From Protoeuglena noctilucae (lineage: Eukaryota), in contig OY253675.1 in NCBI GenBank assembly GCA_958009085.1, forward strand, positions 434,001 through 498,000: a DNA stretch of 64,000 nt, given 5' to 3'. Position 1 is the stretch's first letter; every line of letters begins with the position of its first letter. Position numbers and translations under genes: made by a program. Of this stretch, positions 51-53,027 are shown piece by piece. The notes under the pieces are model-generated. The model did not search any database. It had not been told where the DNA came from and saw only the letters and a list, made by a program, of their open reading frames with translations.

Positions 51-3000
51 TTCCTACCTCCGTTGCCGCGCCATCCACGACCGCCTGCTCCGCACCTCCG
101 CCCTCGCCCACTGGGCCGCCCTGGCCACCTCCCAGAGACTGGCGCGGCTGAGTCAGGCCGCCGGGATCTCGTTTCACGCCAAGTCCTGCCAGCTGCGGTG
201 CTTTGCGGCCTGGAAGCATCTTCTGCTAAAGCGCAAGATGCTCGACGATCGGATGCGCGCGCCTGCGACTGTGACCATCGCAAACGCCACTATCCCCACC
301 ACCGCCACTGCCGGAGTTACACGGGGTGTGGCGCGTGGCACCACCACCACCACCACCACCGCTGTCATTGCACGCGGCAGGGCAGGGACTGTGGTTGATA
401 AGGGTGCGACGATCGCGGATCCCAGTGGGGGTCCGCTGCCCCGGCTGGGCGACGCCATTGGACGGGGGCTGGGGCGCGTGGCGGGGCGGTTCGAGGCGGC
501 GAGGGTGCAGGTGAGGGGTCACAGCTGTGGTGGTGAGCGTGCGGGGGTGCAGGTGAGGGGTCACAGCTGTGGTGGTGAGCGTGCGGGGGTGCAGGTGAGG
601 GGTTGCTGCCGTGGCGGCTGGGAGCATACTCGCATTTTACGTGGGTCGCTACATGTGTACACATCTGCCCACATCGTAGCTCCACTCATCAACCCCACCC
701 CATGTTAACATCCACCCCCCTCTACCACAACTCAGATCCATCAGTGCAAGTCCCTGCTGCGCCGCCTGGCCCCTCACCTGCGCTTCACCGCAAGCGGTGA
801 CGATGTGCAGTGGGCCGCCTCCGTCCACGCCGTCCGCACCGCCCGGGCAACCGCCGAGCGACAGCAAGCATCGACACAGTTACCACAGTTACCGCGTGAC
901 AGTGATGGTCGCAGTGGGGGTGGTAATGCAAGGGGAGTGGGGGCTACGAGAGCGGTAGAGCTGGGGCCTGTGCCGGAGGCGCAGCGGCTGGGGCTGGGGG
1001 AGGCGGGGCAGCGAAAGGCGATGATGAGGGCGATGGGAGTGGCGCAAGGAATGGGTGGGGGAGGCAGTGGGGTGGCTGGGGGGGGTAGCGATGCGGGTGC
1101 GGGTGGGGGTGCGGGTGCAGGTGTGGGTATAGGTATGGGGACAGAGGTGGAGGTCAGTTTGGGGTCTGCGTTGGGTGCGGCGGAGGGTCGCGATGCGCCG
1201 GCGACGGTCAGTGGGACGTTCGGGGGGGTGTCGACGGTGGATGGGGTGCATGCTGCGCAAGTGCATGGGTCATTGCCCGGCATCCCCGCTGGCTTGGCGA
1301 TACCTGAGATGTTCCAGGTGAGACCTGAATGCTGCACTGAGTCAGGTTAAGTGCCCGGCAGTCAGTGCGACACTGCAGCTATCGAGAGAGCACTCGCAGC
1401 ATTCATAGTTAATTAGATAGTGTTGCCAGTAAGTCTCACTGACTTGCAAACCAATCAATCCCCTTATCTGCCACCACCGCCGCAGGTGGACACGGAGCCC
1501 GGCTGGGCCCACCTGGCCCGCATCCTGCAAAGCGTGCTAGACACCATGATAGCAGCTGGCGGTGCCTCATCCGCCACCCACATCGTCCGGGGAATGCGGG
1601 ACGTGGCTACAAGCAGCCAAATTGGCGACTCGCTTGCCCTGCGTTTTCTGGCGGAGGCGGCGGTGTTAGCAGCCAGGACGGCGGGGGCGGGAAGGCCCAG
1701 GCACGCCCCCTTCCGCCCCACCCTCGACCGCATCGCAAATGCGCTGCGCGCGGAGCTTGCGGCCGCGACGCCAATCGCGGGAGCAGACGCGGTGTACACA
1801 GCTGCCACCGACACCGCACTCACCGCCACTCGCGTGGCTGCCGCCCTCGCCGCCACCGCCGCCGCCCGTCTGGCCGAGGGCGTACCCGGCCGCGATCCCC
1901 AGAACGTGCTGCGCCGTCCCCTGTCGCTTTCGGTGGAGGAGGTCGCCCGGCTGGAGTCCGGACTGACACGGGTGTCTGACGCGCTGTCTGGCGTTTCGCC
2001 CCCGCGTGACCCGGGGGCCATCCCGGGCGCCCTGCGGACCGCCGCTTCGGCGCTGCGGGGCTTTGCGCTGGAATTGGCGGAATGCGCCGACCGGGCGCGG
2101 GGCTGCGAGGTCGCGATGCGGCACGAGGTGGGGGCGTTGGGGGAGGTGGGGGCGGCAATGGCGGCGGCGGCAGATGGGGCGTTGACTGCGGTGCGGGCGC
2201 GCGCGGGGACGCTGCGATCGCTCGCGGGAGCAGGGGCGGGGGCGGATGGGGATGGGGAGCTGGTGCGGAGGCTGCGGGAGGAAGAGGGCGTGCATGCGGG
2301 GCGGGCAGAGCGGTTGCAAGCGCAAGCGAGGGAGCTGGACGAGATTGCTTCCGATGCTGTGGATCTTTCCATGGCTGCGTTCGAGGCCAAAGTGGAGGGG
2401 CAGGCGCGGGTGAGGAGTGTTGGGTGCTGGGTGCTTGGGTGTGGTAGCAATGTGGGTGTGGTGGCAGTGTGGGTCATTGTGTTATGACTCGGTTAGTGTT
2501 ACGAGTGTTACCATCGCTAGCACTCTCAACCGTGATAACAATAATAACCTTGCGCTTTTTAACAACACCCCCCCTCTCCCCCCCCCCACACACACAGGTA
2601 GCAGACATGGTGCGCAACCGCCCGCGCCCCTCCCCGCCCCTCGCCCCGCCCCCGCCGACCCTCCCAGAGGCAACGGCAGCGGTGCAGAGTGCACAAAACG
2701 AGGAAACGGAGGCTTTCCGAATGGTGGAGGAGCTAGTAGAGCGCAGGGCGGGGCTGCTGGCTGAGGCTGAGGTGGCGTTGGGAAAGGCGAGGGCGGCGGG
2801 GGCGGCGGCAGAGGTGGCGGGGCAGATGGGGGAGTGGCTGGGGGCGGTCAGCACGCGCCGGGAGGCGTTAGCGGGAGAGCTGTCCGCCCGCGCGGCATTG
2901 GCGCAGCAAGGGCTGGCAACAGCGGTGGAGGCGGCCGAAAGGGCGGGGCGGGAGGCTGGGGCGTTGGCAGCGGCTGCGGGGGTGGCGGCTGACGCAGCGG

Positions 3001-6000
3001 CTTGCGCGGCGCTTCCCTGGGGCGACTTGGATGCGTGGCGCTCTGCAGCTGCGGAGTTGCCGGAGGAGGGGCCAAGGATGGGGGCGTCGCGATTGCGCGT
3101 GTTAGAGCTGAGCGCGGCAGCTGAGGGGACTGCCAGGCGGGCCTGGGGCGACAAGCGGGGGTGGCGGCATGCGGGATCTGACGATGAGGATGAGGATGAG
3201 GGGGATAGTAATGGGGTGCGTGGGGTGGGCTGGCGTGTGGTGGCGGACTGCGATTGGACGGCGTTGATGGAAGTGGGGTTCGCGTGGGGGGACAACGCTT
3301 CGTGGGGGGAGGGGTCGAGGTTCCACCCGGAGGTGACTGACTGATTGATTGGTTTGTTGATTGGTTGACTGATTGATTGGTTGATTGGTTGAGGCTGATT
3401 GACTGATTAATCGGATCGACGTACACAATGCAATCGACCCAACCTTCTATTCAATCCCATCCCCATACCCCACCACCATCGCAGGTCAACCGCAGCCACG
3501 TCTTCGGCATCGACGCATCGGAGCTCCTCATCTACCCCCCCATCGTGCATTTCTACAATCGCTTCGGCCGATCGTGCTCTGCGGAGGAGGCGGGGTACGA
3601 GCCCTACAAGTGGTGGGAGGAGGGGATGAGGGGGGGGGATGGGGTGCTGGACTTTGGTGAGCGGTGTTGGGGGGGGGTGGTAGGGGTAGTGTGGTATGGA
3701 GATGGGGTAGTGTGAGAGGGGTGGTGGGAGGAGGGGATGAAGGGGCACTACTTCACCTCACAACTCACCCACCCCTCGTCTACTATTCCAATTCACTACC
3801 CATTTCCAAACCCCACCCCACCCATCCCTCCCACCCCTCACCCCCAGCCCTCGACCATTCACCGCCCACCATCTACCCACTCACCACCCACTCACCCACC
3901 CATCTCCCATCTCCCCACCCCCCCAGCCCCCCCCGGCACTCGCGGCGCCTCCGTGCGTGGCGGCGCCCATCTCCTCGACAGCCCCGACGACAGCGACTCT
4001 GATAACGAAGATAATAATGATAATGATGATAACGATTATTGCATCATGCCAGTCGGGTCGCGCGGTGGCATCCTGCACGACCTGTGGAGGGTGCGGCTGG
4101 ACTGCGCGCCGAGGACGGCCACGGGGCAGGCGCGGCTGTACTATCTGAGAAAGGTGAGAGGGAGAATGGGTGATAGTTTGATGAATGATAATGTCAGGGG
4201 TGATGGTGTGGTAGTAAGACAGGCGCAGCTATGGGGCAGGCGCGGCTGTACTATCTGTGGAGGGTGAGGGGGGGTGATGGGGTGATGTTTATGGTAGGGT
4301 GTAATTTTGCTTCTTGCGATTGTGAGGCAGTATCTATGGCACATACCAACCACCTTCAACCACCCTCACCCAAACCCACCCATCCCCTTCTCCCCCCTCC
4401 TCCCCCCCAGCTCGCCCGCCGGGCCCTACAAGCCATCGCCCTGTGGCGCGTGCACTGCCACCGCGCGTCGGACATCGCAGGCTCCCTCGGCCGCCGCGCG
4501 CTGATGCGTCGAGCGTTCGACAGATGGCAGGAGTGGCCGGGGGTGGCGAGCGATGCGGCTCTTGCGTTCCGGGATCGCAACCTGGCCGCCAGTGCGATGC
4601 TGGGGTGGGCCCTGTGGATGCACTACAGGCGAGTCACTGTCTATGTGTGATTGGAGATGTGCAATAACTGGCAGCGAGTGCGATGCTGGGGTGGGCGCTG
4701 TGGATGGCGAGGGTGCAGAGGAGGGTGCAGTGACTGGGATCGTGCTGTGCAAATTACTGTCACTGATACCCATACTGGTATCCGTATTGGTGTCGGTATC
4801 GTATCGGTAATGGTATTGGTATTGTTACTAATACCAATACTGATATTGATCACTCCCCCCATCCCCCCAGGGCCGCCAAGCTCTCCGCAATCCTCGAGGC
4901 CCAGTCCTTCTACCACCGTCACCTGCAATCCACCGCATTACTATCGTGGCAACTATGGCTGGAGCGGCGCAGGGAGCTGCGGGAGAGCTACGAGCGGGTC
5001 GTGGCCGCCAGACACCGAGGGCGGATGCGAGAGGCATTCGGTCACTGGCACGCGATGGCGGCACAGCGCGCGCTGCTCACGCGCGTGTTCACGCGAATGC
5101 AGGAGGCGTGGGAGGGCGTGGGGTGGCACCCGGAACACCACTACGAGTTCGATCTCATGCAAAGGGTGATGGGTGCGTGGCGGGAGAGAGCGGGCGAGGT
5201 GGTAGCGAAGCGGACCGGGGCAGCGCGGGAGGCGGCGGCGGAGGCGTACCGATCCGCGTCGCTCGCGCACCGGGCGATGAGCGCGCTGCGGGCAGCGGGC
5301 GGGGAGGCGCGGGCGCGGGGGCGGCTGAAGTCCCGGGTCTTCCGTGCGTGGTGGGCGGTGGCGGCGGTGGAGGCGCTGGAGGGCGGCGGGGCCGGGAGGA
5401 GCCAGCTGCGCGCGGCGGGGTACGCCAATGAGGGGCAGTACGATCGCATACGGTGCGTGTGGGGTGTGGGGTGGGATTGTTGGGTGGTTTATGGGGATGG
5501 AACTGTGGTGGTTGGCTGTGGGTAGTTTATCTATCAAATAGATATACGTTGTCGATCTGGTAACGCAATGTACCTCTCCCATTCCCGCAGTCGGCTGCAT
5601 GGGGCGTTTGGCGCATGGCGGCTGCTGTCGCAGGTCCGGTCCCGGCCGCTGCAGCTGGCGGCTCTGCTGTGGAAGCAAAAGGTCATGTCTGCCTTCGCAT
5701 TGGGGTGCCGAGCGTCGCGGGAGGAGGACGATTCGCGATTGCGGCCCTTTTTGGAGAAGTGGGGCGGACGGCGGCCGTTGAAGCGGGCATTCCGGGTATG
5801 GCGTGCCGTTGCCAGGAAACTCGCCAGGCTCAGGTGAGGGGATGCGGTCGTATTGCTAAGCGATGATGAGACGATGAGACGGTGAGGATGGGGCGGCGCA
5901 TTTGCAGCTTGGCTGTGGTGGTGGTGGTGGTTCCGATGCAGCAATGGCGACTCACGCAATGTGGATGACAACAATTATCGTTATCATCGCTTAGAGCATC

Positions 6001-6841: not shown

Positions 6842-7139
6842 GGGTTGCGATTGGTAGCTGGGAACGGTTCCGCGGACGGATGAACTGTCGCTGTGTTATG
6901 CTTGAAGTCTTGTTGAAATCGTGACGAGTGCGAAAGTGCGGCGCGCGGCCTCGGCGAGTCAACTGGCGCTGCGTTCACTTGCGACGATGCGGGAGGGCAG
7001 AACTCCTTTCGCGCGCATCCCCGTCCCGCAGTGGCGGTAAAATTGCATTCCTAATACCTTACTCGGCCTTTTTCTCCACCCGGCACCGTGTGCGGATTCG
7101 ACGCGGCCGGGTGCAGCTGCATGAGACGCGCTTGAGAGG

Positions 7140-7232
7140 GTGATTGGCCCGAAGAGCGAGCCGCGCGACCCCCTCCCCGTGCATGAGAGGATGATTGGTC
7201 TGAAAAGCGAGCCGCGCGACCCCCTCCCCGTG
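7140..7232 (+). repeat. 51-bp-period tandem duplication covering the start codon of the GT31 gene
   Basis: GTGATTGGCCCGAAGAGCGAGCCGCGCGACCCCCTCCCCGTG (7140) versus ATGATTGGTCTGAAAAGCGAGCCGCGCGACCCCCTCCCCGTG (7191). Confidence 0.9.
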
Positions 7233-8895: not shown

Positions 8896-9344
8896 CAAAG
8901 ACTGTTCTATATTGATTGTTTTATATTGACTGTATCAATATGGGTACCCATGCTGTGCGCTACCCTGGGGTGGGGTCCGTCGGTGTACAGATGGGTGGTG
9001 GTGTGGGTGGCGTGCATGATTGGTTGACGCGATACTATTATTGAGTTGAGCTCGTAGAAGAGACTCCATTTCTCATTGGCCACCGATAACGGCTGTTCAT
9101 TATATTGACTTCGCCCCATGTGCGCTTTCAAGCGAGTTGCACCAAAGCAATGGCAATGATAACAAACACATGCAAAGCTGTGACTGCAGCGCAAACTGCC
9201 CGCTTGGGCTGCGCAGCGACTCACTGTGTGCCCCAATGCTGCGCCCACTGCACCCCCATGCCACCCTCACTCCCACACATGCTGCACACGCACCCTCACT
9301 TCATAGCGCATGCGCCCTCCCTGCACAGCACCCTCCCTGCACCC

Positions 9345-12300
9345 TCACTGCATAGCACACGGCATGCGCACGGCAGCCCCCTCCCCCGCCCCCCCCTCAT
9401 CCCCGTCCTCTCGCTCCCTCGCCCGCAACAGCGCTTGCAGTATCGCGGGGTCGAGCAGAGTGCTCAGGCCCAAACGACGGTGGCTGCCCTGCTTAGCGCT
9501 CTCCTGGTTGTGGCTCACCTGGGGGGAAGTGGGGGGGAGTGAGGAGTTATGTATAAAAGACAATTATTTACATCCGCAATAACCAATAAAATTTGCAATC
9601 ATATATAAGTATTATGATATTATTATGAGTTCACCACCACCACCCCTCCTTACTCTTACTTTGTACTTATCATCATCAAATCGTTCTGTTATTTATATCA
9701 ATATAGTAACAACAACACCCACTCACCAGCGTCTCAAGCGCGTTCGCGTCCACCACCGACCCCCCCTCCCCCTCCCCCCCCTCGCCCGCCCTCGGCGCCC
9801 ATATTCTGACGACGCTCTCGATGCCAGAAGTCGCCAGAACGGGGTCCACCGGGTGCGGCTGGCAGCAGTTGGCCACATCCGCGTCCGCAAGCAGCGCCGC
9901 CACCAAGCGACCGGACTGGGGGATAAGGGGGGTTATATAGGGAAAGGTATGATTGAATTATGGATAAGGGTTACTCGCGAGCAGGGCTGCCACCAGGCGA
10001 CCGGACTGGGGGATTGGGGGAGAGAGGGGATAAGGTGTGGGTGGATGATGGTGTATGACATGTGTGGGTGTAAGGGTGCTCAGGCATGTCAAATATCAAC
10101 CCTTCACACTATACACCCTCACGCTCACTGCCACCCCCACTGCCACCGCCACTGCCACCCCCACTGCTACCCTCACTCCCCCGCTCCCCACACCCCCACT
10201 GCTACCCTCACCCAATTGTATATACCACCCCTCCAACCACCCCCTCACCTCCGCCTCATGCAGGAACACAAACACAAACACCACCCCCACCACTCTCATC
10301 CCCACTGCCACCCCCACTGCAACCTCAACCCCACCACTCCACACACCCACACCCACAATCCCCTCCCCCCCCCCTCACCTCCGCCTCATGCAAGAAGACG
10401 TGCCCGCAGTCGGAGCAGCACGCGACCAATCGGTCGTCTCTCCCCACAAAGCACGCCTCCTTGATGTCCGTGTGCACGTTGCAGTGACCCACGTAGCGGC
10501 GGGTGAGGCGGGAACCGCCCTGGCTCAAGTCGCGGAGCCAGCGCTGGGGGGGTTACGAGAGACAGTAATAGATAGATTAGTTAATAACTGATTATGACCA
10601 GCTGATGTTGCCAGCGCTGGGAAGGGGGGAGAGGATAGATAGTAATGGAATAGTTGTTGATGAATACATTAATGATGAACACTTTCCAACTCACTAGCAC
10701 CCGCGACACCCATTTCAATACAACCAACCCCCACCTCCCTATCTCAATACAGCCACCCCACTCACCCACGACAGCCTCCTATCCGGCAACACCACCCCCG
10801 TCCCCCCCACCCCCTCCCCCCCAACGCTGATTGCCTCTCTGTCCGGCCCAGGGCCCCACCGCTGCCCAGACTCGTCCACCAGGCACTCCTCCACCCTGCG
10901 AGGGCGAATGGGGGATGAGACGCGGGTTTGAATCCCGGGGGAGGCAAGGGACTGTGCAAGAAAGCGACACACGGGGAACGGCAGAGCCCCCTTGCATGCC
11001 CGTCACCACAGCCGCGCTCACTGCCAACATGCCAGGCCCTCACACCTCCCTCACCCACACCCTCACACACCCACCCCTCCTACTCCCACACCACCCCCTC
11101 CCCCCTCACCCCGCACTCCCACCCCCTCCCCGCCCCTCCTGCCCCCTTCCCCCACCGCTCCCACCCCCCTCCTCATCATCACTTGAAATCCCCAGCAGCT
11201 CCCGCAACCGCCTCCGCCCCCGCTCCCCCGCACCCTCACTGTTACTCTCACCCCCATCACCACTCTCAATGCCACCCTCATCACCACCACCACCCTCACC
11301 CTCACTGCCATCCTCACCACCCCTGCCACTGCCACCCCCACTGCCACCCCTATCACCATCCTCACTGCCCCCCTCACTGCCGCCCCCCACAAACCTCGCC
11401 ACCACCCCCACGCTCCCCACAACGCGCTCCTCGTCCCCACTCCCCTCCTCCACCCTCTCCTCCACTTGCACTTGCACATCCAAACTCACGTAACTGCCAC
11501 TGCGACGATGCATGCCCCGGCTGCCCCTCCTATCACCTGCACCCGCACCCGTACCCTCACCGCCACCCTCACCCCCACTGCCACTGCCACCCTCACCCTC
11601 CCCCCTCCTCCTCACCACCCCCTCTGCTGCACCCCCACCGCCACTCCCACGGCCACCACCACCCGCACCCCCACCACCCCCACCCCTCCTGCGCTTTCGG
11701 TTCTCCCATCCCTGACTCAGCCGCTGGTCCAATTCCGCAATCTCCCCAATCATCGATGGGAATCGAACCTTGAAGTCATCGACCGCCTGACGGGCACTGC
11801 GGGTGGGTGGTTGGGAAGAGGGGAAGGGGTGGCAGTGGGGGTGGCAGTGGGGGTGGTGGGTGTGATGGTAGCAGTAAGGGTGGCAGTGAGGTCGTGGGTG
11901 GGCAAGGGTATGCTGATACACACTACTCACCCTCTCCCACACCTGATGGCCAGCCCCTAGGCATTACCCAGTCATCATCCTCAGTCATGCACTCCCTCGC
12001 CTGACCACCATCCCCAATGCAACCCGCATGCCTGCAACTGCTTTACCACCATTATCACCACCACTCATCATCCCCCTCACCTCGCCACCATCCCCAGCCC
12101 CCTCAGCGCCTGTGCCCGTTTAATATAAGGGCGGAAATACCCAGGCGCAGCGTCGATCGCATCCTCGGCATCCATCAGCGCAGAGAAGGCGTCGCCCGCG
12201 TAGTTGCGGTGGAGGTAGGCCGCGGCTCTGTGTGTGGGGGTGGGGGGGGTTGGTGGTGTGTGGTGGTCGTGGTGGTCGTGGTGGTGGGGATAAAGGGGGT

Positions 12301-14868
12301 GGTTGTGGTGGTTGTTGAGTGCGTGAGGGGGCTGAGGGGAGGGAGGTGCGGTGTGGGAAGCGTGCAACTGAGGGAAACACGGTAGGCAACCCCACACACA
12401 TACCCAGATGCACCCCCACACCCTCCCACACCCCCACCTGTTGTTGAGCAGCATGGGGTGCCCCGGTATCCCCTCCAAACACGCAGAGTACATTCCCACG
12501 GCCGCGTGTGGCTGCCGGCGGTGCATGGCCGCATTGCCATGGTCCTTGAATGGGAGATATCGAGAATCGCAGCCCTGCCACTGCGGGGGTCGAAGGGTGC
12601 ATAACAGATGAGTTGTCATGCGAGAGAGCGGGGGTCGCAGCCTGCCACTGCAAGTGTTGAGGTGGCATATCACAGCACATCACGATGCTTTCTTAAGGTG
12701 TGTACATGTCAACTATCACAGCCCAGCCATTGTCCCACACACACCCCTCACAACAACCCCTCACCGCTTGCTCGGCGTTTGAAAAGTCCCTCCCGTCATC
12801 CCACTGCACGCCTCCCTTCACACCCAACGCAGATGTAGATGCACCCAGCACAGATGCCGGCGATTGCTCGTGATGCCCATTTCCCTCCCCCCACGTCCTC
12901 ACAGCAGCTCCCCTCTCCATCCCCACCGCCCCATCCCCACCCCCGTCGCCAGTCACATCAAACGCATAAGCATGGTCGCCGTGATAGGTGGCCACCAATT
13001 GCGATCCTTTATTGGAAAAGGAGACGTAGGTGCAGTGGACGCGGGGGCCATCGCGACTCGACAGGTGGAGGTGGGTGGGGGCAAGGGCGAGGGTGGGGCC
13101 GGGGGCGGTGCGGGCGGCAGAGAGGGTGGTCTGCGGGGGGTTAAGGGAGGGATAGTGATGGTGATGTTAACGGTGATGGTGATAGTGATACTGATGGTGA
13201 TAGTGGGGTGGAAGTAATAGTAATAGTAATAGTAATAGTAATAGTAATAGTAATAGTAATAGTAATAGTAATAGTAATAATAAGCTGCAATCCCTCGCCG
13301 GCGACAGCTTCCTGCGATCGTAAACGCGCACGAACGCGTCCTCGCACCCCAGCGCCATCATGTGCGGTCGGGAGGGGTTGATGGCCAGGGATTTGATGCC
13401 GGTGACGAAGCGTGACCCGCGGCACTCGATCAGCACGTTGGGGGAGTGGGCGGGGTCGGACCTGTGAAGGGGGGGTTAAGTGGGGGTGGGGTGGCGATGA
13501 GGTAGGGGGTGAGGGAGGGCGTAAGTTGCTTAGCCTAGCCGTACGTTTACGTTTAGTATTCTCTCATTCACCCCAATCGCACATGCCCTTTCATAGCCCC
13601 TCGCCTGCCCATTGGCGTTCTCAGGTCGTACTGCCTCACGGTGCCGTCCTCGCTGGCACTCCAGAACAGGTGGGGCTCCATGGGCTCCACCTCCACCTGA
13701 GAGGGAGTGAGAGAGAGAGTGAGGGTCATTGTGAGTGATAGAGGGAGGGAGGGAGGGAGGGATGGTGAGCAAGTGACGGTGCATGCGAGTGACGGGGTGA
13801 AGGAGTGATGGCAGAGATACAACCCATGCACTGCCCATCCCCTCACCTGCTTGACGCGGTCGGCGTGGCAGCGGAAGGTGGTGGTGCGCCTTGACACGCG
13901 ATCGTGCATTGCAGCCGGGTCCTCGTGAGGCGCGGGCGCGGAGCGCGACAGGAGGCGCCAGGGGGCGTCGCGGGGGACCACGTCCAGCGTGTGGTGCGCC
14001 GCGGTGTTGTCCATGGCCCTGGGGAAAGCGGGAGGGTGGGTACTAAAGGGTGGGTGTTGGGGGATGGTACCGGTGGGTGCAGGTGATGGAGGTGAGTCGA
14101 ACGAGAACGCGGGGGACGAGTACAAATAGAGGCCTGCCTTGGGATGTCACGACACGTTCGTAGCTTCGATCGCGCTGCCTTAGAGTTGCTCCATCGAGCT
14201 GCCGAGGTCTGAAAAGCAGCGACTCACCCGGTGACGATCTGCGCGTTGCCCGTGCACGGCAGGAACTTGACGCCGAAGATGTTCATCGTATGGTCCGTGG
14301 CCATAATAATCCCCGAAGTGCCGTTGGTCGGGTAGCGCCTGCGGCGGACGCGGCGGGCGCGAGCTGCGCCCTGCGACCCGGCAACCAGCCCTCCCCGGCG
14401 CCCAGAGGCAGTCTGACCCGCTGCAGCGATGACCGATGCACAAACCTAACTGTACCTGATCATTACGCAGGTATCGTCGGAGCCGGACGCGAGGAACTGG
14501 CCGTCGGGGCTCCACGCGAGACGGTTGACGCACCCGTGGTGGCCGTACAGCACATCCTCCACGCACAGGCTCCGCGCGATGCCTGCGCGCGAGAAGAGTC
14601 GCTGTATAAGGTCATAGACGAGCTGCGCCGACGCGCGGGTCCAGGATTGCGACGGACGGGGCACGCGATAGGGTACGAGGGGCCAAGGGACCGGGGAACG
14701 TGGTTGAAGCCCAGCGCGGCACCCGTCTCCGACAATTGTTGCCCTGCAGGGCTCGAATCGATCGGGTCGAGACGGAGCCATCGCGCCTAGCGGGCACCCA
14801 CCCGGCGTGAAGTCCCCTCGGCCGCCCCAGCCGTCCGCCCGCAGGGAAGCCATCGCGTACTTGTGCAT
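9345..14868 (-). CDS. WDTC1: WD40 plus TPR DDB1-CUL4-associated factor, WDTC1/ASG2-like, with C-terminal CaaX
   Basis: LYGHHGCVNRLAWSPDGQFLASGSDD, NIFGVKFLP, CHADRVK, FWSASEDGTVRQYDLR, TPR-like RAAAYLHRNYAGDAFSALMD, RRYVGHCNVHTDIKEACFVG and VANCCQPHPVDPVLATSGIE. The last exon ends in CAMQ-stop at 9345. The exact start codon is uncertain (14868 or 14853). Confidence 0.88.
13213..13281. repeat. (TAGTAA)n hexanucleotide microsatellite in a WDTC1 intron
   Basis: About 11 near-perfect AGTAAT units, starting about 17 nt into the intron after the GC donor at 13298 (minus strand). Confidence 0.95.
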
Positions 14869-23903: not shown

Positions 23904-24458
23904 GGCGCTGTGTTGTGGCGGCCTATCGCGTCATCGACATTTCCCAACAACGCAGCCCCTCTGCTGGCCGCGACGGGCCTTTACGTGGCAAGAGTTGCGA
24001 CTGATGTTCTGAGGGCAAGGTCCACAGCGAGTCGCAGCTGTCGGAGACGAGCGCACGCACGGCACTTGCGCCGCCAGAGCTTGCAGCACGACCTGTGTCG
24101 TCGCATTTCACAACGCCCGACGACAACAAGGGCTGAGCTACACTGTGGGGCAACGCCTGATACTTCAAGCCGCTGTTAGGCATGCGTGCCACTCGCTGCC
24201 ACCCTTCACATGCGCGATGATGCTGTTTGCGCCATGGTGCAACCGACTGGCGTGAGGCCGAAGCACAAAACCAAGGGCAGGTACGTAAGGTGTACCTATG
24301 ACAGGTAGTTTACTGAGAGACACAACCCCGCCACTCCACTTCGCTCAACTCAGCCATGCCGCCCCATGCCACCTCTCACCAACCCCTCTCTCGTGCACTA
24401 ACCACTGACCCTACTCCCCTCAGCCCAGTCATGCACTGTGCCCCCTCTCCCTCCCTCA

Positions 24459-34309: not shown

Positions 34310-35004
34310 GGCTGGGCCCCGCACCCTGGCTGACAACCGCCCTCCTCGCCCTGCGGGGCAGCGATGACGCCACCCCGATGATTTCTAGTATACAATTATC
34401 ATATTGCAAGTATTGCAGCGTGGCCCGTTGCGGCGCAAAAGTGCCAGCGGCGTGCAGAGGGCGAAGGCCGTTCAAACGCAGCGAGCGCCCTCCGTCTCGC
34501 CTGCGACGATCCGAAACCGTTTCCACTCTCCCCCTGGACTTTTCTTGATCAATCACGAACGCCTCGAGTCGATCGCGGCCCCTCAAGGCCACCTGAGGAG
34601 CAGCGACGCCCTGCCGCAGCACAGCAAGCACCAGCACCTGCGTCTAATCCCCAGCCGGCCGAGCGACTCCGCGGCGCTCGCCGCTCTGCACAGCCACACT
34701 ATCGTTCGCTTCGCTGTGCGCGCACTTTCGACCCTCTCTTCGCTCGCATGCTTCTGGCACGCACGTTCAAACCTGGCAAGAGCGCCTAGTCAGCCGCACT
34801 CACGGCTGGAGACCGTCACGCGTTGCTCTCCGCCGGCGTCTCGCTCATCCACCTCACTTCCTCCCTCCTCCCAGGCACCCGCAGCCGGCCTTGGCGTCGC
34901 CCGCCTCCGCGCCCTCGTCCGCCTTCGGCCACCAATCACTAAGGGCAGGTCGCGGGACGAAACACCATCGCGCATTCGCACTAAAACAATAAGCATATTT
35001 CACT

Positions 35005-37972
35005 TCACGCATTCGCGCGCCCGCTCACCACGGCCTTGGCCTTGGTCTGCCCACTGGCGCCCGCACCCGAAGCGTCCAGCAGCGACGGCTTCATGTGCCC
35101 GGGGGCCTGGAAGCCCAGGAGCTCGATCGTCGTGGCCGTCACGTTCGCGAGGCCCGCATCCGGCAGGTCCTGGCGGAAGCGGAGGTGCTCGGGGAGGCCC
35201 TTGCCTCCGATGGCCACCGGCACTGGCGCCAGCGTGTGGGAGGTCAGCGGAATGGGCCCGTTCTCGTCCGTGAGCGCCTGCTGCGTCTTCTTGTCCCTCT
35301 GCACCATATCGTCGGCGTTCCCGTGGTCCGCAGTGACCAGCCACCTCCCATTGACGTCGTCGCAGCAGTCGAGCAGCTCTTTGAGGCACTTATCCACGAA
35401 CGCGCACGCCTCCACGGTCGCCTTGAGGTCCCCCGTGTGGCCCACCATGTCCGGGTTGGCATAGTTGATGCGGATCATGTTGTAGCGGCCCGACCGCAGC
35501 GCCGCGATGCCCGCGTCGGTAATCTCACGGGCCTTCATCAGAGGGGCCTCGTTGAAGGGGCACGTGTCGGATGGGATCTCGACGTAAGTCTCCAGCTTCT
35601 CGTCGAAGTAGCCGGAGCGGTTGCCGTTCCAGAAGAACGTCACGTGGCCGAACTTCTGGGGGAGGTGGGTGCGAGGGGAGGGGGGGTAAGGGGAGGTGGG
35701 TGTGATGGGGTGGTGTGTTGGGGGGTCGCGGGGGATGAGGGTTGTGTGTTAAGCCCCTATGATGCCCTGCGAGTCTCATGCATATTGTCACTGTATTTGA
35801 CCATTCATGTATGTCACATGTACATGAACCCCTCACCTGCGTCTCGGAGCACGCGAAGGTGGCGATGCCGTTCTTGACCAGGTACTGCCCCGACACGTTG
35901 GCGATGAGGGGGGGAGCCACCAGGAACTTGGAGGGGAGCTTCAGGTCACCGTCGTACTGCACAGGAAGAGACCAGGTGGAGTGAGGTGAGGTGAGGTGAG
36001 GGAAAGGGCTGGGTCAGGAGGGATGGGGAAGTGTAGAAGCGCGGCTATGCTTGAGGCTCGCCCGCACTGCACTCGCCATCACTCCCATGCCAACTTGCCT
36101 GCCCCACACTCCCTCGCTTCCCATCGCTCCCACCCCACCCCACTCCCACTCGCCTGCATCATCCCCGCGAACCGGATGTTGGGGAACCGCTTGCGGTCGA
36201 AGTGCTTGAAGTCCGTGTACTCCAGGGCCTTGGACATCTCCACCATGCGGTCGGCACGGAAGTTGAACGTCACCACCGCGTCGCCGTCCTGCACCGCGCC
36301 CACGGGGGTGCCTGACTCGTCCACTGGGGGAAGGGGGGGAGGAGGGGGGATGTGGGGCGGGGTTGGTGGTGCGGATGGGGCGCATCGGTGCAGGAAGTGG
36401 GGTACTGGTCACACACCCACGCCCATCACTCTGCCACGCTGTCTCTCGGCCACTCACCGATGACGAAGGGGTCGGGAGGTACTGATCCCACTACCACACT
36501 CACACCGACAATAGCACCCACACCCATCCCCACCACCACTCCTATACTCACCGATGACGATGGGGTCCAGGGTCCAGGTACTGGTCAGCCACCACACCAC
36601 AGTAACACTTACACCCATCCCCACCACCACATGGCCCCTCACCGATGACGAAGGGGTCCAGGTACTGGTCCGACACGGGCTTGTCGTGGCCGGGCTTGGG
36701 CTTCCGCAGCGTCGTGACGGCGTCCAGCGCCGAGGTGAACTTGTGCGGGGCCTCCCCCAGCACGTGCGCCTCCCAGCCGCGCTGCACGATGGCCCAGTCG
36801 GCCTCGTACCGATCCATCGTGACGTTCATGCGGCCGCCGCCCGAGGCGATGCGCGCGTCGCAGCCGTCGAGCTTCTTCAGGTCCTCCTCCAGAGCCTTGA
36901 CGAACTTGACCGAGGAGCCGTCCTCGACGTCGCGGCCGTCGGTGAGGACGTGGACGCGGATGCGCTTGGCGCCGTGCCGCACCGCGCCCTGGATCGTCTT
37001 GACCAGCTGGTCGTAGCGCGAGTGCACGCCGCCGTCGGACAGGAGGCCGATCAGGTGCAGCGTGTGCTCCGCAAAGCTCGGCTGGATGTGCTTCCACCCC
37101 TCGCCCTCGAACATGCTCCCGGTCTCGAGCGCAATGTCCACCAGGCGCGCGCCCTGGTCCACCACCTGACCGGAACCCAGCGCGTTGTGGCCGACCTCCG
37201 AGTTGCCCATGTCTGCGCGCGGGAGGAGGCCGCGCGTCGCGGGGAGCGGATGGCAAGCGCACGTCCAGCTACGCCGCCCTTGTTCCTCTCGCCTGCGTCT
37301 GAAGGGAGGCCCACGGCGGTCCCGTGCGCCTGGATCGTCCTCCAGCGGTCGGGCGCCGACTCCCGCAGCGCGTCCATCGTCGGCGTCTGGAGGCAAGGGA
37401 GCGCATCGAGCGGGTGACCCATGGGACACGCGTCCGCCGGAGATGCGGGCTCGGCGGCGCGCCCGTCGACGCTGATGCTCACCTCAGCGACGTGGATCGC
37501 GTTCCACTGGTCCTTGTTCACGTTCTCGCCCCACCCGTCCAGGATGACCACCTGCGCACGGGGCCGCCACCCAACCCGATCGCTCGCGGCGTCCCGATCC
37601 ACGCGGCCATCTCCACGAGGACCGAAACGAAGTCTAGCAAGCGGAGATGATTAAGGGAAGGCACAATACTGCGAGATGGGGCAGCCTGAGCGCCCCCAGT
37701 CGAAGGTCGGTCCCAGCCGAGCTCGTCTCGCGGGATGCGGTGATGGCGGAGTGTGACAAAACGTCATCGCATCGTAGGACACGAAGTTAACCCCGATGGA
37801 CCACGCAGAGCGCCGATGCTCGCCCAACATCCGAGTTCCTCGAGGAGACGGAGATGTTGCCATCGACAGCAGCGCCGAGCTGAAAGAAGATACATCGATG
37901 ACGCCGCCTCACCATCACGGGCCCATCCGGCCGCGAGATCGCAGGGTGCGCCTGCAGCTTCATGTCCGCCAT
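35005..37972 (-). CDS. gpmI: 2,3-bisphosphoglycerate-independent phosphoglycerate mutase (iPGM)
   Basis: MADMKLQAHPAISRPDGPVM|VVILDGWGE, GLPSDADMGNSEVGHNALG, GLLSDGGVHSR, ASGGGRMNVTMDRYE, FNFRADRM, MQYDGD, SETQKFGHVTFFWNGNRSG, NYANPDMVGHTGD, TADHGNADDM and TSHTLAPVP. Seven exons. Confidence 0.97.
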
Positions 37973-41270: not shown

Positions 41271-44200
41271 TCACAAGTACGTCAGGCTGCGGTTCCCCAT
41301 CTTGAGATTGGTCTTCTTCTTGGCGCCCCTCTTCGACGCAGCCTCCAACGCGACACCCATGTCACGGGTCGGGTTGAAGCCCTGGCCCCTGCGCCCACCG
41401 CCACCGCCACCGCCACCGCCACCCCCACCCCCACCCCCACGCCCACGCCCGCGATTCGAGCCCCCCTCTCGCCCCGCCCCGCGCCCACGCCCGCCACGCC
41501 CCCGCCCGCCGCCTCTGGCTGCCTCCGCCCCCAGGGCCCTGGGCCTCCCTGCAACGAAACCGAGCGCACGATTCGTACTAAGCAAAAGTCGCTATGCAAG
41601 GGGTTTGGTGTTGGACGTTTGTCCAACTGATACACACAGAGCAGTCGCTAAACAATGCAGCTAAGGCAACTCTGCTTTGCAGAATTGCGTTACTGCCAAC
41701 AGCGCCCGCCGCCCACTCCCCCATGCCACTCACCTTGCTGCGACGCGCCCCCCTCGTCGTCGCCCTTCCCTCTCGGGAACGGCCGGCCCTCGTTGTCATC
41801 AATCACCGTTCCGATCTGTATCCCGAAGTCGAACGGCGTCACCTCCGCCGCACGGGCGCGCTTCCGGGCCGCACGCTCGCTCGCACCCCGTTGCTCTGCG
41901 GGTGGTACGAGGCGGGTGGGGTGGGGTGATGGACCACTACCTGTGGACGTACCAAGGGAGTTACCCTGACAGCCACCATGCACATCCCACATGCACCCCT
42001 TCTGCAGCATTCACCCCACGCGCACGCACCCCCTGCCGCTCTCAACCCACCCATATCCACCCATTCACCACATAGCATCATGCACCCCACATCCACCCAT
42101 CCACCCCACCCGCACGCACGCACCCCCTTCGGCCCTCAACGCCACCTCCACAAACTTCCTCTTGTCCTTCCCCCGCTCTGACCCCCCCGTTGAGTATCGG
42201 TGCTTCAGTGGAACGGGGAGGTAGTCCTCTCCCGCAAGCACCTCGGCCCCTGGACTGCCCGCACCCTCCGCCTGCATGGGGATGAGGCAAACACACATGA
42301 ATGAATTGTTACTATCAAATAGTGTATACCAAAAAGCAATGGTTGACCCACTTGGCGCATTGATGGGCGTCACTGCGCCACTGCAGTTGGGCTAGCGATG
42401 ACCTGGTTGCTGGCGCTGCCACCCACGCACCTCTGCCTGCCTCCGCATCCCCTCCACAAACGCCGCCACTGCCTCTCGCTGCCCCTCCGCCAGCTCCGTC
42501 GGCGCAGCAGCCACTGCTTCATCATCCCCCATCTCCTCGCCACCCCCATCCCCACCTCCCCCGTCGCCCTCGCCAGTCACGCCTCCTGACTCAGGAGTAA
42601 CTGAGTCAGCATCTGCAGCTAAGACCAGCGCAAAGGGCATGGCCATCGCCCCTTTCACCGCCGCCACCCTCGCGGCCACCCCCGCACTGCCAGGTGACAC
42701 AGACACAGGCACAGGTACTGCCCCAGAGCCACCCGCTATGGCACCCAGTACCGCCATGGCAGGCCGCGCAGTGCGGGTGGGTGGGGCACCAAACAGAGCC
42801 CCCATCGCACTGGGCTGCGCTGGACGCGTCACCACAGCCGCAGCCATGCTGGATGGTGCAGCGGCAGTGGATTGGGCCACACCAGCCGCCGCCCTACACC
42901 CGTTGTCGTCACCCCCACCGCCCCGCTCAGCATCAGCCCCACCGACTGCCTCTGTGACGCCGCGGTTAACGTCCGGCTGCGATGCGACATCCAATGACCC
43001 ACCCTTTGTATGGCTAGACACCCCCAGCCCTGTCCCAGTGACCCCAGACAGCGCCGCTGCCATCCGCGATGCAACCGGTGCAGGCCCTGTGATGGGCACC
43101 ACTACACTTGCACTCCCGGCACTGTCTGCATGTGCACCGCGACCCATCAGCCCCGCCATCGCACTCCCCGTATGTGCTGCCACCCCCACCGCCACTGCCA
43201 CCCCGCTCGCACCCCCACCCCTGACCCCTCCGCCCACAGTGCTGCTACCACTCGCACCAACACCCGCAGGTGCCGCCACGCCCGCTACCTCCCCCCCTGC
43301 GCCAACCCGCTGCCTTCCAGCCACCCCAGCCCCACCCTCCCGGTCCGCCCCCACCGCCACTCCCACCCCATCCCCTTCCTCTCCCTCCCCCTCCCCCTGC
43401 GCACCCCCCTCATCCTCATCGCCCCGCTCCTTGTCCCCCGCAGCGCCACCCTCGTCTCTGACGCCGTCTCTGGCACCCTCTCTGGCACTGACAGCTGTCG
43501 GAAGCAGCCCTGTGGTCGGGTCAGCCCCCAGGGGAGGCTCAGCCCCATTCACAGCCGCCCTCACTGCCGCTGCGATGTGCTCTGCGTGGCGCCGCGCGAC
43601 TGCGTTGCGGATCTTGGAGCCGGCAGAATCCAGGGCTTTGAGTAGCGACGGCACTGTGCAGAGGGAGGGGGGTGGGTGGTTGGGTGTAGGTCAGGTGCAT
43701 GGGGCAGTGGCGGGGGTGGAGGATGCATGGCACGCTACTTCATACAGCAGGATGCACAGTTAAAGAACTGTGGGTTCCGCACAGCCACTGCCACAGCACA
43801 CGCATGCGTCCACACCCCCCTACCACTACGCCCATCCTCACCGTCTGTCGGCACCGCCTTCGCCAGAGCCAGCAGCACCGCGCGGGGCATGATATAACCC
43901 AGTGAGTCATCCCCCTGCCGCCCAGTGGCGTCTCTCCAGGCAAAGAGAGCGGAGAAGGCCGCGATTTGGCGTCGGTCCAATGACCTCGCTGCAGACTCCC
44001 GACGCAGAGCGGCGACCCACGAGGTGGGCGTGAAGAGGGGCTTCTGCGGAAAGGGGGCGTGCGAGCGAATGAGGGGACTTGCAAGGGAGGGCAGGGGCAC
44101 CCTGCGTGCAACTGGTGGCGGTGCATGGGCTGGGAGCTTTGCAACAGAGACGCGCTTGCGTGTGACATGAGCCAGTGCTTCCACAACCAATCATCTCCAT

Positions 44201-48580: not shown

Positions 48581-51500
48581 ATGGAGGCGATCGGCCAGAC
48601 GTACGTCAACCCCGATCTTGAGGGCGAGGATGAGATTGAGGAGGAGGAGGAGGCGGCCAAGCTCGCCACCGTCTTCCTGGCGAGCGGCGGGGCGAGCGGC
48701 GGGGCACAGGGGACGCCGTTGGTAGGTTGCACCTGCGAACTGGCCCGGATTCTCCCGCACCCGCAGGTGGACATGGCACCGAGCATGCTCCAGCCACGCG
48801 TGGAGAACTTCTCGTGGGCCGACATGGCGCTCCTGAACATCAGCCACCACATCACGCACGACGCCCTCCAGGCCCCCGAGAACATGCACGCCGTCGTCTT
48901 CTTCGGCGCCCAGGCGAGTTGTCGAGTTTATGAGTAACAATCGCGCATATCCGGGATTCCCGGAAGCACCCGGATGCCTCCGCCGGGACGGGCGAAGTAG
49001 TAAAGCATTTGCGCGAGTGTGCGTCCTCACGGCCCTCCGCCGCGCAGGTCCAGGAGCCCAAAGATGCGGACGAGGGCATTCACGTCATGTTGCCGCTGTC
49101 CCGGCCGAGCGTGGCGGGTCTCCGCAAAGTGGATCCCACCAACTTCGACTCCGACGACCATTTGCAAACCGCGATTGGCTCCGCGCCCACGCCGCCCCAC
49201 GGGTCGCGGATCCACTTCCTATCCGCGGCCGTCACCAAGGCCAGGCGAGCGCAATGCGGGTTTTTGTTTGGAGCACACACGCTGCTCCCTGCGCTTCGTG
49301 CTTTGCACCATGATAGCTACAGCACGTCTCGCTCTCCCCTCGCAGGCAGATGCTGGAGAAGCTAATTCGTTCCAAGGGCAAGACCGGCCCGCGCGTGGAC
49401 ATGAGCGTGTACGTCTACACGGACGACGACAACGTGATGGGCAGCGGGAGTGGTGCATTGGCGTATGCCAACAAAGCCAAGGGGGTTACCAAAACGCTCG
49501 CAGAGATGGCCGCGCAGGGCGTGCAGGTGAGTGGTGCGGTGTGGTGGTGTGTCTGTGGCATGGTGTGGTGGAGTGACGGTGCTGCTGGTCATACGGTCGC
49601 ATGGCATGTACTCCAATATACTACTAATAATTTAATACTATATGTAGATACTTGCGACACCATGTGTTCCCTGTTTACCCAGGTGGACGTGGCTCTCTTT
49701 TACGACGGCCCCTCCCTGCCCTCCACCGATGCATGGGACGACCTGCTGCCCGACGTTTCTGGCGTTTCTGGCAGCGCGGGGGGGTTAGGGCAAACGTCGC
49801 AGGCGACGGAGGGGTTAGGGACGCAGGCGACGCAGGCGATGGGAGTGCAGGGGGCGGGACATGGGGTGGACAGAGGGGCGGGGGCGATGGGGATAAAGGT
49901 GGCAGTGGATGGGCAGATGGATGGTCCATCCATGGACATGCCGACGGTCACGCCTTGGTCGAAGGAGCAGGTGCAGGCGCATATACAGGTGACTGCAGGG
50001 AGGGGTGGGGTTTGGGAGTGGTGGGGCGGCAGGGTGGCAGCGCAGAGATGAGGGCTGAACAAGCTTATTGACACCCCCACCGCTACTGCATGGCTTTGCA
50101 CAAATGCCACCCATATCTCTACCTCCACCACCGCAGGGCTTTGAGTGTGGTAACATCCGCGTGGCCCGCCGCAAGCGCGCCTACCGCACCCTTCCCCTCT
50201 GCATTGGGCCTGATGGGCCGCCCTTCATGGTGCGAGCCTACTACACGGTCAAGAAGACGCCGCTGCCGTCACCGGGTGAGTGATTGGTGAAGTGAACATG
50301 GTGATGGTAGTGGTGGTGATGTTGTGGTGCGTGCGTACTACAGGGTCCTGTCAAGAAGACCGCACTGCCGTCACCGGGTGAGTGGCTGGTCGATGATGGG
50401 GAGGAGTGGTGATAACGATAGCGATAATGATTATAAGTAATAGCATTTGATAATAATATGACTCCCTTCTCCCCTCACACTCAGTGTGGATCGACCCTGA
50501 GAACCGTGAGACCAGGCCGCTGACGAAGTTCGTGGTCAAGAGCACCACGCAAGTGATGGACAGGGAACAAGTGACGGGGAGGCAGATACGGTACGGCAGG
50601 GGAGAGACGGTCACGCTGCAGGTGAGGGGTGGGGAAGGGGGGCATGGAAAGCGATGGGGTGGCATACGTAAACAGCTAAAGCGGCTAGATTGTCAGTAAC
50701 AACCCACCCACCCCTACCCCTGATCTTCCCTCATCCACTCACCTCATCCTCACCCCTCACCCCCATCCCCACCCCCCTTACCCAAACGCAGGCATCTGAC
50801 ATGGCGCGTGCCAGAAACCCCGCCAAGGACGCGGGCGTCTCTGGCATCCGCGTGGTGGGGTTTATCCCCAGAGATGACCTGACAGCGTTGGATGAGATGG
50901 GGGCGGGGATGTTCCTGTACCCAGACACCAGCCTGGCCTCAGGTGAGGGGGGGTGGCTGTATATATATTGGTGATATAATGGTTATATTGGATTTGGTTA
51001 TCTATTGGAACCAATATAAAAACTAATTGGATATATATTGACTTGAGAAGTGGCTTGATGCCTAACGGCCACCCTCACCCCTGTTAACACCCTCACAGCC
51101 ACCCTCACTACCCCCGGTATCTATGACCCCCGCCTCTCACCCCGACCCGTTAACCCCCTCCTTCCTGCAGTGCGCAAGAAGCACGTCAGGCAGTTTCTGA
51201 CGCTCCACCAGGCGATGCTTGCGAGGGGGGTGGTGGCCGTGGCACTCATGGCCAGCCCAGCGGGGGGGTGAGTTGTTGTTATGTGTTTTGATGAGTTGTT
51301 GCATGTTGTGTGTTGTCGTTGTGTCGCTGTGCGTTACTGTATGTTGTTGTGTGGATGGTGAGGGGTGAGTGTGTAATTACCAACCACTACCACCCCCACT
51401 GCCACCCACCTTCACACCCCCCCCCCCAGTCTCTCCCCCATTGCCCTCATCCCCACTCGCGAGTCTTGGCTGGGCGATCCCGGCATGGGACTGCAGTTAG

Positions 51501-52608
51501 TGGGGGATGGCTTCTGGGAAATGACCACCCCCACGGCCAATCAACTGAGGGCGCTGAGGGAGATGCTGCTCAAAGCGGGGTACGTGCCGGATACGCACGA
51601 GGTGAGAGACTGTTGTTTTCTAATGAGTTATGTATAAGTATAATTATATTGGAAAGTATACTGTTGTGTGAGATGGTATGGGGCAGGCAGACACGAGGCC
51701 CTTAAATATCACCATATATTCAATCATTCAAACACAATCATTCTTATACTTTCTATTTGTAATCTTCGCAGCCATCCCCTTACTCGGTTCGTGCTGCGGA
51801 GGGACTGGTGGATCGATTGCGTCTGGGCAGAGAAGAGGACTGGCACACGGTGCAGCACGTGTTCAACCCGGTATTGCAGAGGCACTTCCAGGTAAGTCAG
51901 AAAGCGAGTAGAGTTATTTAATAGCTACAAGGTTGATTGCAAGGTTGCTTACTGGTTGTGTTGATACGCAGCTGTGGTTGTCGTCACAGTAATAGTTATA
52001 GTGACGGTCATATTACTATAATGAGTAATAATAATATCACTGGTATGATCATCCATACTTTAACCACTCCACCCTCCCAACCCCCCCAGGTGGTGCGCCA
52101 CGCGGCGCAGGGCACTCTGGCAGACTACGTGCCAGACAACCGCCAGGATCACACTCTGCCGGATCCGAGAATGGACGTGGCATGCGAGGACGTCATCGGT
52201 CAGTTCGCCAGGGCTTGTCAGTTGGGGGTGTCGGGTGGCAGGGGTGGTGGGGAGGGGGGCAGGGGGCGGGGGAGTGGGGGGGCGGGGGTGAAGAGGAAAG
52301 CGGAGGGGGAGGGGGAGGAGGTGGGGGAGGGGGAGGTGATGAGGTGAGGGGTGGGGTGGGGAGTGGTCATGGTGTCACTATGTAGCGGATGCAAGGAATT
52401 TGATGCTTTCTCACCCCACCCCACCCACTTCTTTCAACGCTTACACCTCCCCACCCCTACCCCCACCCCCCCCAGGCTCCACGCCGAGGGCCGTCTGTCC
52501 ACCCTGACCGTCCCATCTCTCAAGTCCTTCCTAGCGAGCAAGGGGCTGCACGTGACGGGGAAGAAGGCCGATTTGATCGAGAGGATCGGGAACTATCTGG
52601 CGAAATAA
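48581..52608 (+). CDS. KU70: Ku70-like DNA end-binding protein (divergent)
   Basis: vWA-like N-terminus (HAVVFFG, VYVYTDDD), RKRAYRTLPLCIG, GIRVVGFIP...FLYPD, FLTLHQAMLARGVVAVA, FNPVLQRHF, DHTLPD and a C-terminal SAP domain LTVPSLKSFLASKGLHVTGKKADLIERI. Stop TAA at 52608. Confidence 0.85.
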
Positions 52609-53027
52609 CGATTGCGATGAATGGGGGGGTGATCATTGTGCGAGGGGATTGGGAACTACGTGGCGAAATAGTGAGCCAATTACTGTGGTTAATACTGTGG
52701 TCATTTCCATTCCTTCGTGTCTGCTTTAATGAGGCTTCTTCCCCTCGGGCGCGAGCATCGATGTCAGCAGCGGGCCTGGTCATGATGTCAAATCTTTCGA
52801 CACCCTTTCAAGCGACCCGCACTGCACCACATCCATGCCGACACGCAAACGAGCATCCAACAGCCATGTCTCCACATCAGACATGTCTGCAAGACAGTCA
52901 TAGATTTGTTTGACAAAAACACATGCCAGTACTGACACCATGGCAGAGCCTACTTTACAGAAAATCCTTTTCTGTGTAACTCACAGGTGTCCAATTCAAA
53001 CCGTGACTGAATCAAAGCGCCGTCCCG

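Follow-up and report, generated by a model that had tools for sequence, protein, structure and literature searches.

A 64,000-nucleotide stretch of DNA from the green alga Protoeuglena noctilucae (assembly GCA_958009085.1, contig OY253675.1, positions 434,001 to 498,000), here called the window, carries tandem repeats that straddle its exon-intron junctions. In 11 of 71 predicted introns, distributed over seven genes, the end of the exon, the donor splice site and the start of the intron are copied head to tail into the same intron. These copies are termed echoes, and the donor sites that they contain are termed decoys. At two of the loci it could be shown that the first donor, i.e., the one directly attached to the exon, is used, and that the echoes are confined to the intron. 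All counts refer to this one window, which has a GC content of about 64% and many short introns, and whose DNA also occurs in marine metagenomes.

For the detection of echoes, a donor probe made of the last 30 nucleotides (nt) of an exon and the first 10 nt of the intron was compared by alignment with the intron that it came from and with the remaining 70. Between different introns, the highest score was 18.0 in 4,970 comparisons. Ten introns scored between 19 and 32.5 against their own probe, and the eleventh (exon end 18886) passed an ungapped tile test; each of the eleven scored higher than all 70 other introns. The first unit lies on the exon-intron boundary, as defined by RNA at 36643, by Pfam at 28594 and by the exon ends of the gene models at the other nine loci. 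Short-period repeats (10-34 nt) across donor sites were not found in the window.

The introns were predicted with a gene finder that was built for this analysis and combined codon log-odds, derived from the RNA-supported exons of a phosphoglycerate mutase gene, with self-trained splice matrices and dynamic programming. A score of at least 40 was required, which resulted in 12 gene models with 71 introns; predicted introns longer than 700 nt may conceal exons. The three RNA-defined introns within the coding region of the mutase gene were recovered. In addition, two Pfam matches continued without a break across a predicted intron, namely Utp21 (profile positions 27-145, then 146-259) and a 3'-5' exonuclease (2-45, then 47-172). 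The gene models are thus supported by the recovered introns as well as by the unbroken domains. A fourth RNA-defined mutase intron (34939-35028), located just 5' of the stop codon, was read through by the gene model.

Pfam was applied to 30 exon translations and gave matches in 11 of them; among the junctions with an echo, only that at 28.5k could be tested in this way. The echo-bearing genes that could be named encode a phosphoglycerate mutase, an IDM1-like protein and a 3'-5' exonuclease, which are unrelated. Neighbouring genes include, according to Pfam, those of Utp21/WDR36, an Aladin-like WD protein and a Fringe-like protein. Translation of the exon 36644-37267 (minus strand) yields a phosphoglycerate mutase of the cofactor-independent type; its best database matches are from green algae, with at most 78% identity, and a match to itself was not found. 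A preliminary description of this DNA, made from its letters, had proposed such echoes for at least six unrelated genes, and the seven genes of unrelated function found here agree with that proposal.

Viewed on the gene strand, the repeats are duplications of whole units of 39-130 bp, present in 2 to 3.2 copies (Table 1). A unit covers 15-46 nt upstream of the exon-intron boundary, the donor site and the adjoining part of the intron; at the triple loci the exon end is joined to GTGAG and to some 50-70 nt from the start of the intron. The intron parts of the units are also homologous to one another, with 71-100% identity where they could be aligned (gapped alignment). The extra copies add 39-185 nt to the introns, and the claim that tandem duplication lengthens introns is therefore supported. 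Echo introns are 209-975 nt long and end with an ordinary C-rich tract and CAG. Without the copies they would measure about 107-243 nt, a length that is ordinary for introns of the window.

Table 1. Repeats across donor sites, acceptor sites and coding ends of the window. Offsets are given relative to the real site, and slashes within sequences mark junctions; TRF, Tandem Repeats Finder.
Feature	Positions	Strand	Details
42-bp unit, 2.5 copies; probable junction echo	499..603	+	first unit over predicted exon end 510 (GTGCAG/GTGAGG); TRF 98%; decoy donors at +42 and +84; intron part 51/51 identical; exon 51-510 partial, from the gene model only
Exon end 4153 with donor, echo at +110	4123..4293	+	within 257-nt intron; exon part 28/31, intron part 25/32 identical; decoy GTGAGG; donor probe 29.0 vs at most 12.0 in 70 other introns
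Exon end 4628 with GC donor GCGAG, echo at +86	4582..4714	+	alignment and donor probe; echo without 8 nt of exon, GCGAG retained
Exon end 10379 with donor, echo at +130 in intron	10228..10396	-	exon part 19/21, intron part 18/21 identical; decoy core score equals that of the real site
Exon end 17645 with GTGAGGGATGA, three copies (real, +88, +142)	17469..17669	-	295-nt intron; donor probe 32.5 vs at most 11.5 elsewhere
Exon end 18886 with donor, echo at +39	18826..18900	-	tile test 20.0 vs 11.0
Exon end 28594 with donor, three copies (real, +96, +179)	28402..28628	-	289-nt intron; IDM1-like gene
Exon end 29333 with GC donor GCGAGT, echo at +86	29241..29355	-	GC donor retained; alignment and donor probe
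Unit of about 92 bp, 3.2 copies	36401..36675	-	real junction 36643/36642; decoys at +91 and +185, partial fourth copy; all copies within intron 36324-36642 of the phosphoglycerate mutase gene
Exon end 42124 with donor GTGCGT, echo at +94	41981..42147	-	probe 20.5 vs 12.0; exon part 19/23, intron part 41/55 identical; absent from the preliminary description
Exon end 50275 with donor, echo at +102	50240..50411	+	209-nt intron; probe 27.5 vs 11.5; exon part 25/28, intron part 30/41 identical
Acceptor-side duplication, 90-bp unit	9886..10020	-	intron end, CAG and first ~34 nt of exon 9915 copied upstream; probe 29.0 vs 10.5
Weak, older acceptor-side echo, offset ~73	10537..10653	-	~32 nt of intron end, CAG and 7 nt of exon; probe 12.0 vs 11.0
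Weak, older acceptor-side echo of exon start 12580, offset ~67	12550..12651	-	probe 15.0 vs 12.5
Coding end with stop TAA (52606-52608), echo with TAG at +63	52578..52671	+	22/26 identical
Coding end with stop TGA (9345-9347), echo ~49 downstream	9291..9368	-	5-nt alignment gap; G-rich context
51-bp unit, 2 copies, containing ATGATTGG	7127..7232	+	TRF 91% (7133-7232, 2.0 copies)

Most of the repeats had been listed in the preliminary description. Nine of the listed donor, acceptor and stop pairs were aligned, and all nine match with 80-97% identity (34/38, 29/30, 25/26, 21/24, 25/29, 38/43 with a 5-nt gap, 31/34, 23/24 with a 5-nt gap, and 22/26). The array with a period of 42 at 499-602 was found again by TRF (499-603, 42 bp, 2.5 copies, 98%), and the three copies described for 17.6k, 28.5k and 36.6k are all present, with an additional partial fourth copy at 36.6k. 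One statement was wrong: the echo of 4591 at 4677 was said to lack the donor, and yet GCGAG is present after an 8-nt gap, like the GC donor of the real site.

The window derives from a metagenome assembly and its introns are low in complexity, two features that would favour an assembly artefact or chance similarity in low-complexity DNA. However, an ungapped diagonal scan of the window revealed 54 segments at offsets of 20-400 and none at the control offsets of 3020-3400, and the echoes themselves are repeats of high complexity. A self-blastn of the window gave 14 non-self matches, all of which were direct and spaced by at most 417 bp; neither inverted nor dispersed matches were obtained. Furthermore, DNA contigs from two other runs, X1 from another study and X6 from another sample, had no differences to the window over the 18.8k, 28.5k, 29.3k and 36.6k loci. 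At the 17.6k locus the X1 unitigs stop at the repeat, yet they overlap consistently. An artefact or chance similarity is thus extremely improbable. Variants in copy number were not seen in four runs, in which assembled contigs lose rare variants, and an exact 25-mer of the 17.6k unit had no match in the metagenome contig collection.

Donor choice and decay of the copies

The 36.6k locus is covered by an RNA contig (X10 record 13; 1,937 nt), which maps to 34755-34938, 35029-35655, 35837-35956 and 36643-37200, and a further 170 nt of which fit 36154-36323. The joined coding sequence of the mutase is open through ...DQYLDPFVI/VDESG.... Because the contig joins at 36643 and the joined frame is open, splicing occurs at the first donor and leaves both decoys inside the 319-nt intron. 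At 28594 the evidence comes from the protein domain: one Pfam match to IDM1_C (11-68) ends at the exon end, and the next one (71-125) begins at the first residue of the following exon. This continuity shows that the echoes at this locus are non-coding, and thus the first donor is used also here.

At the remaining nine loci the first donor would be used as well. Splicing at 13 of the 15 decoys would shift the reading frame or run into a stop; the two remaining ones, both at 510, are in frame. The preliminary description had proposed that the duplications seed decoy or alternative splice sites. Decoys are indeed present, and all 15 keep the 5-nt core of the real site (GTGAG, GCGAG or GTGCG); alternative use did not find support, as the sole RNA contig uses the first donor. 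Part of the 17.6k intron is retained in a second RNA contig (X9 record 22; 17300-17507), which is uninformative on the use of decoys. The RNA cover is otherwise thin across 17300-37200.

Comparisons with other sequences were of limited help. Homologues of the exon ending at 17645 were not found at E <= 1e-5. Among 80 metagenomic loci related to the mutase exon, the closest is L001:3130-4240 (77% identity, GC content 69%); most of the other 79 are distant, with 50-71% identity. L001 is devoid of introns over the region that contains three introns in the window, and it has no echo; the comparison is uninformative for the echoes. The two lineages differ sharply in intron density.

The copies are of different ages, and the distribution of their mismatches was analyzed. 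Mismatches were found at 31 of 298 aligned positions in the exon-derived parts and at 66 of 367 in the intron parts. This ratio of about 1:2 would result if only the real exon were held constant and all other parts drifted; it thus fits neutral decay.

Proposed origin and survival of the duplications

The echoes are probably best explained by a frequent, short, minisatellite-type tandem duplication, combined with survival and with the polarity of splice-site choice. The raw material would be a generally high rate of short tandem duplication, and the same process is also seen in arrays at intron ends, in in-frame coding repeats (32600-33117) and in copies of stop-codon regions. When the first unit straddles the junction, each extra unit would drop an exon end, a donor and an intron start into the same intron, which would gain one unit per event. 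The spliceosome would stay with the upstream-most donor, the one that is continuous with the exon. As this donor is still used, the message would be unchanged and the copies would be silent decoys. Mirror duplications at acceptors would be harmful because the upstream copy is the wrong one, and acceptor echoes would therefore be rare. At the DNA level, the fill-in of staggered breaks or slippage would be plausible routes.

This explanation was confronted with an opportunity model, in which uniform breakpoints in introns of at most 700 nt give fractions of 0.29 for donor-spanning, 0.43 for internal and 0.28 for acceptor-spanning duplications. The power of detection was simulated by inserting duplications into echo-free introns and letting them decay. 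At 10% divergence per lineage, 38/40 donor, 29/40 internal and 35/40 acceptor duplications were detected, and at 15% divergence the values were 29/40, 13/40 and 30/40, respectively. Observed in introns of at most 700 nt were 10 donor, 1 internal and 1 acceptor duplications. The difference between donor and acceptor remained after power correction (p = 0.006-0.009), and over all 71 introns donor echoes outnumbered strong acceptor echoes by 11 to 1 (p = 0.0035). The acceptor deficit would be expected if the first competent site to be transcribed is used: an extra downstream donor would be harmless and an extra upstream acceptor would be wrong.

Several results weigh against this explanation. RNA backs the use of the first donor at one locus only, and assembled contigs could miss rare alternative use; in addition, the gene models are those of the analysis's own predictor and the sample is one 64-kb window. 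The ratio of donor to internal duplications is 10 to 1, while uniform breakpoints predict about 1:1 (power-corrected p = 0.0008-0.03), and the internal deficit is left unexplained by the survival filter. Small arrays detected by TRF crowd at both ends of the introns (15, 7, 5, 14 and 16 of 57 by intron quintile); breakpoints would then be non-uniform, and this may explain part of the internal deficit. Furthermore, the exon part of the units is always short, 15-46 nt of 39-130, with a normalised mean of 0.22 (Kolmogorov-Smirnov p = 2e-4 versus uniform). Either longer copies might be eliminated because they activate the decoy, or the left breakpoint might be tied to the vicinity of the junction. 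Lastly, the decoy cores have 0 changes at 75 positions, compared with 31 at 298 in the exon parts (Fisher p = 0.0015), which could mean selection on the decoys; the intact cores may reflect selection or ascertainment. The preliminary description had left it open whether the process is targeted to junctions or survives there, and had suggested comparing the echo rate with that of intron-internal duplications. On the scale of the window, the ratio of donor to acceptor echoes fits selection, and the excess of donor over internal duplications and the narrow exon part hint at something beyond uniform duplication followed by survival.

The excess of donor over internal duplications and the short exon part are not explained by neutral survival, and therefore a mutational hot spot remains a candidate. 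It is the main rival and, in our view, rather unlikely. In this scenario the hot spot would be anchored where coding sequence changes, on the sense strand, into the G-rich start of an intron (or a 3' untranslated region, UTR). An R-loop, a G-quadruplex or polymerase pausing at the donor might cause staggered breaks that would be filled in, and the left end of the duplications would fall 15-46 nt inside the exon. The donor excess after power correction and the narrow exon part agree with it, and G-rich sequence also follows both stop-codon echoes. Echo introns are slightly richer in G+T at +7 to +56 (0.72 versus 0.64, p = 0.046), and small tandem duplications can arise, according to a part of PMC8355091, when breaks with 3' overhangs are filled in. 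However, tandem arrays are equally common at the C-rich 3' ends and at the 5' ends of introns, the counts of G-runs are the same in echo introns and other introns (p = 0.34), and the numbers are small, with 11 loci in one window. A wider version, in which a transcription-linked hot spot at the boundary of exon and G-rich sequence is combined with intron growth at the 5' end by stuttering at the junction and with selection of the decoys as U1 landing sites, is unlikely. Selection alone, which would keep decoys as extra U1 sites, helping the true donor or suppressing premature termination, or as regulated unproductive splice sites, is improbable. The 15 intact cores (0/75 versus 31/298) and the core scores, in which most decoys equal the real sites, would fit. 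On the other hand, detection favours copies with an intact core, the use of decoys would be disruptive in 13 of 15 cases, and decoy use is not seen in the RNA contig. Furthermore, GTGAG was not enriched in the 52 echo-free introns of at most 700 nt (11 occurrences versus 5-19 for permutations of the same letters).

Two further possibilities concern the birth of introns and were rejected. Tandem duplication of an exonic AGGT is an established route of intron gain, as described in a part of the review PMC3443670, and five of the 15 decoys read AG/GT, for which recursive splicing is conceivable. Nevertheless, a reading of the echoes as traces of intron birth or as recursive splice sites is very improbable. 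Intron birth is contradicted at the loci examined: the introns far outrun the unit (39-130 nt versus 209-975 nt; 319 nt versus 91 at 36.6k), they end with an ordinary C-rich tract and CAG, and the echo is not at the acceptor. Ten of the 15 decoys are without a preceding AG, and a pyrimidine tract 5' of the decoys is lacking. Insertion of a mobile, introner-type element, by which the exon end was duplicated as a long target site, would be in line with the creation of introns and the duplication of target sites by introners in some algae. It is as improbable as an artefact, since nothing dispersed or inverted was found in the window by self-blastn and the sequence between the copies belongs to the repeated unit.

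Further repeats and intron features of the window

With an acceptor probe one strong echo was detected, at exon 9915, together with two or three weak older ones (Table 1). In the strong case, the CAG of the upstream copy is followed by 27 nt (9979-10005, minus strand) and then GCGAGT. This segment could be spliced in as a micro-exon of nine codons that repeats the first residues of the next exon, and an initial pass of the gene finder predicted precisely this micro-exon. The acceptor echo that had been described for 10537 and 10610 exists, but it is weak and comprises only about 32 nt of the intron end and 7 nt of the exon.

Echoes of stop codons were found at two of the 12 model ends (52608 and 9345), a rate per boundary that is similar to that of donor echoes. 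A start-codon echo had been proposed for 7191 versus 7140. The repeat was borne out (51 bp, 2.0 copies, 91%) and may be a duplication of a start region; 7191 as the real start is uncertain, as the gene model 7191-7742 scores only 22.

Two repeats concern the IDM1-like gene. At 32600-33117 (minus strand) three diverged coding-like copies (…KRKRRRKRGTDAILVEEAG…) are located upstream of the first predicted exon and overlap with it. Their offsets of 168 and 249 nt are multiples of three. They are probably in-frame protein repeats, and the model thus likely lacks part of the 5' end of the gene. At 27455-27598 a 54-bp unit (18 codons) is repeated 2.6 times within an open frame of 516 codons (26897-28447, minus strand) that was modelled as an intron; the repeat may be coding and belong to an exon of this gene that the model missed. 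A simple array, (AGTAAT)n with 11.8 copies (98%), occupies 13213-13283 and begins 16 nt past the predicted donor 13299 of a minus-strand gene.

The introns of the window have further features. GC-AG introns are unusually common: a GC donor, mostly in the form GCGAG, was predicted for 16 of the 71. In the subset of 42 introns predicted with the highest confidence, the acceptor is always CAG and the donor is GC in 11. The GC donor of the intron 35957-36153 is supported by RNA. On the sense strand the introns are polar in composition, with about 30 G/T-rich nt at the start (G 0.31-0.45) and about 40 C-rich nt at the end (C up to 0.63), as exemplified by 36324-36642, 35957-36153 and 35656-35836. 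The last mutase intron (34939-35028, minus strand) abuts the stop codon (…GTG/intron/TGA), and the final exon contains only the stop and the 3' UTR.

Relation to known systems and meaning

The closest known case is a minisatellite in intron 7 of the human F7 gene, a 37-bp variable number of tandem repeats (VNTR) whose first unit lies over the boundary of exon 7 and intron 7. Its pseudo-donors are silent since the most upstream site is selected, as was studied by mutagenesis (PMC1557585, in the part considered here). As far as that part describes the locus, both systems share a head-to-tail repeat that straddles the junction, a true donor followed by identical pseudo-donors, and the choice of the upstream-most site, which in the window is seen at two of the 11 loci. 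In contrast to this single mammalian locus, 11 loci with units of 39-130 bp in 2 to 3.2 copies are present in 64 kb of a green alga. Also unlike the F7 VNTR, copy-number variation was not seen here in four runs, and the selection rule is deduced from RNA at one locus.

Tandem genomic duplication is regarded as an accepted route to new introns in the part of the review PMC3443670 considered here. As in the AGGT model outlined there, a small duplication within a gene copies splice signals and the coding sequence can survive. In that model, however, the new intron has the length of the unit, whereas in the window an existing intron is lengthened and the duplicated donor is unused. A possible molecular counterpart is the fill-in of staggered breaks by Pol alpha-primase, guided by CST, which yields small tandem duplications (described in a part of PMC8355091). 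The likeness is one of form only: the copies have tens to about 100 bp, are arranged head to tail and need no mobile element, whereas the portion of that work considered here deals with a repair mechanism without a link to splice junctions. The introners of Micromonas and other algae share with the echoes that algal genes and introns are concerned and that sequence is duplicated at the intron border. They form dispersed families with short target duplications; in contrast, the copies described here are purely local and do not form a family in the window. Duplications arising from paired nicks have reportedly been described in plants by Schiml et al. in 2016.

The density of echoes (11 of 71 introns), the bias towards donors and the narrow exon part, in a green alga, appear to be new. 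In the full-text literature searched, which is a limited collection, no description of such a pattern on a genome scale was found for green algae. Junction repeats with identical silent donors are known mainly from single human loci, where they serve as a model for donor choice. The window repeats that natural experiment at about 15% of its introns, in unrelated genes and with copies of different ages. If this were true genome-wide, it would represent a direct and quantifiable route to intron lengthening and would offer many natural tests of the rule that the first donor wins and of the intolerance of acceptors. In addition, it would provide a way to ask whether exon-intron junctions are fragile DNA.

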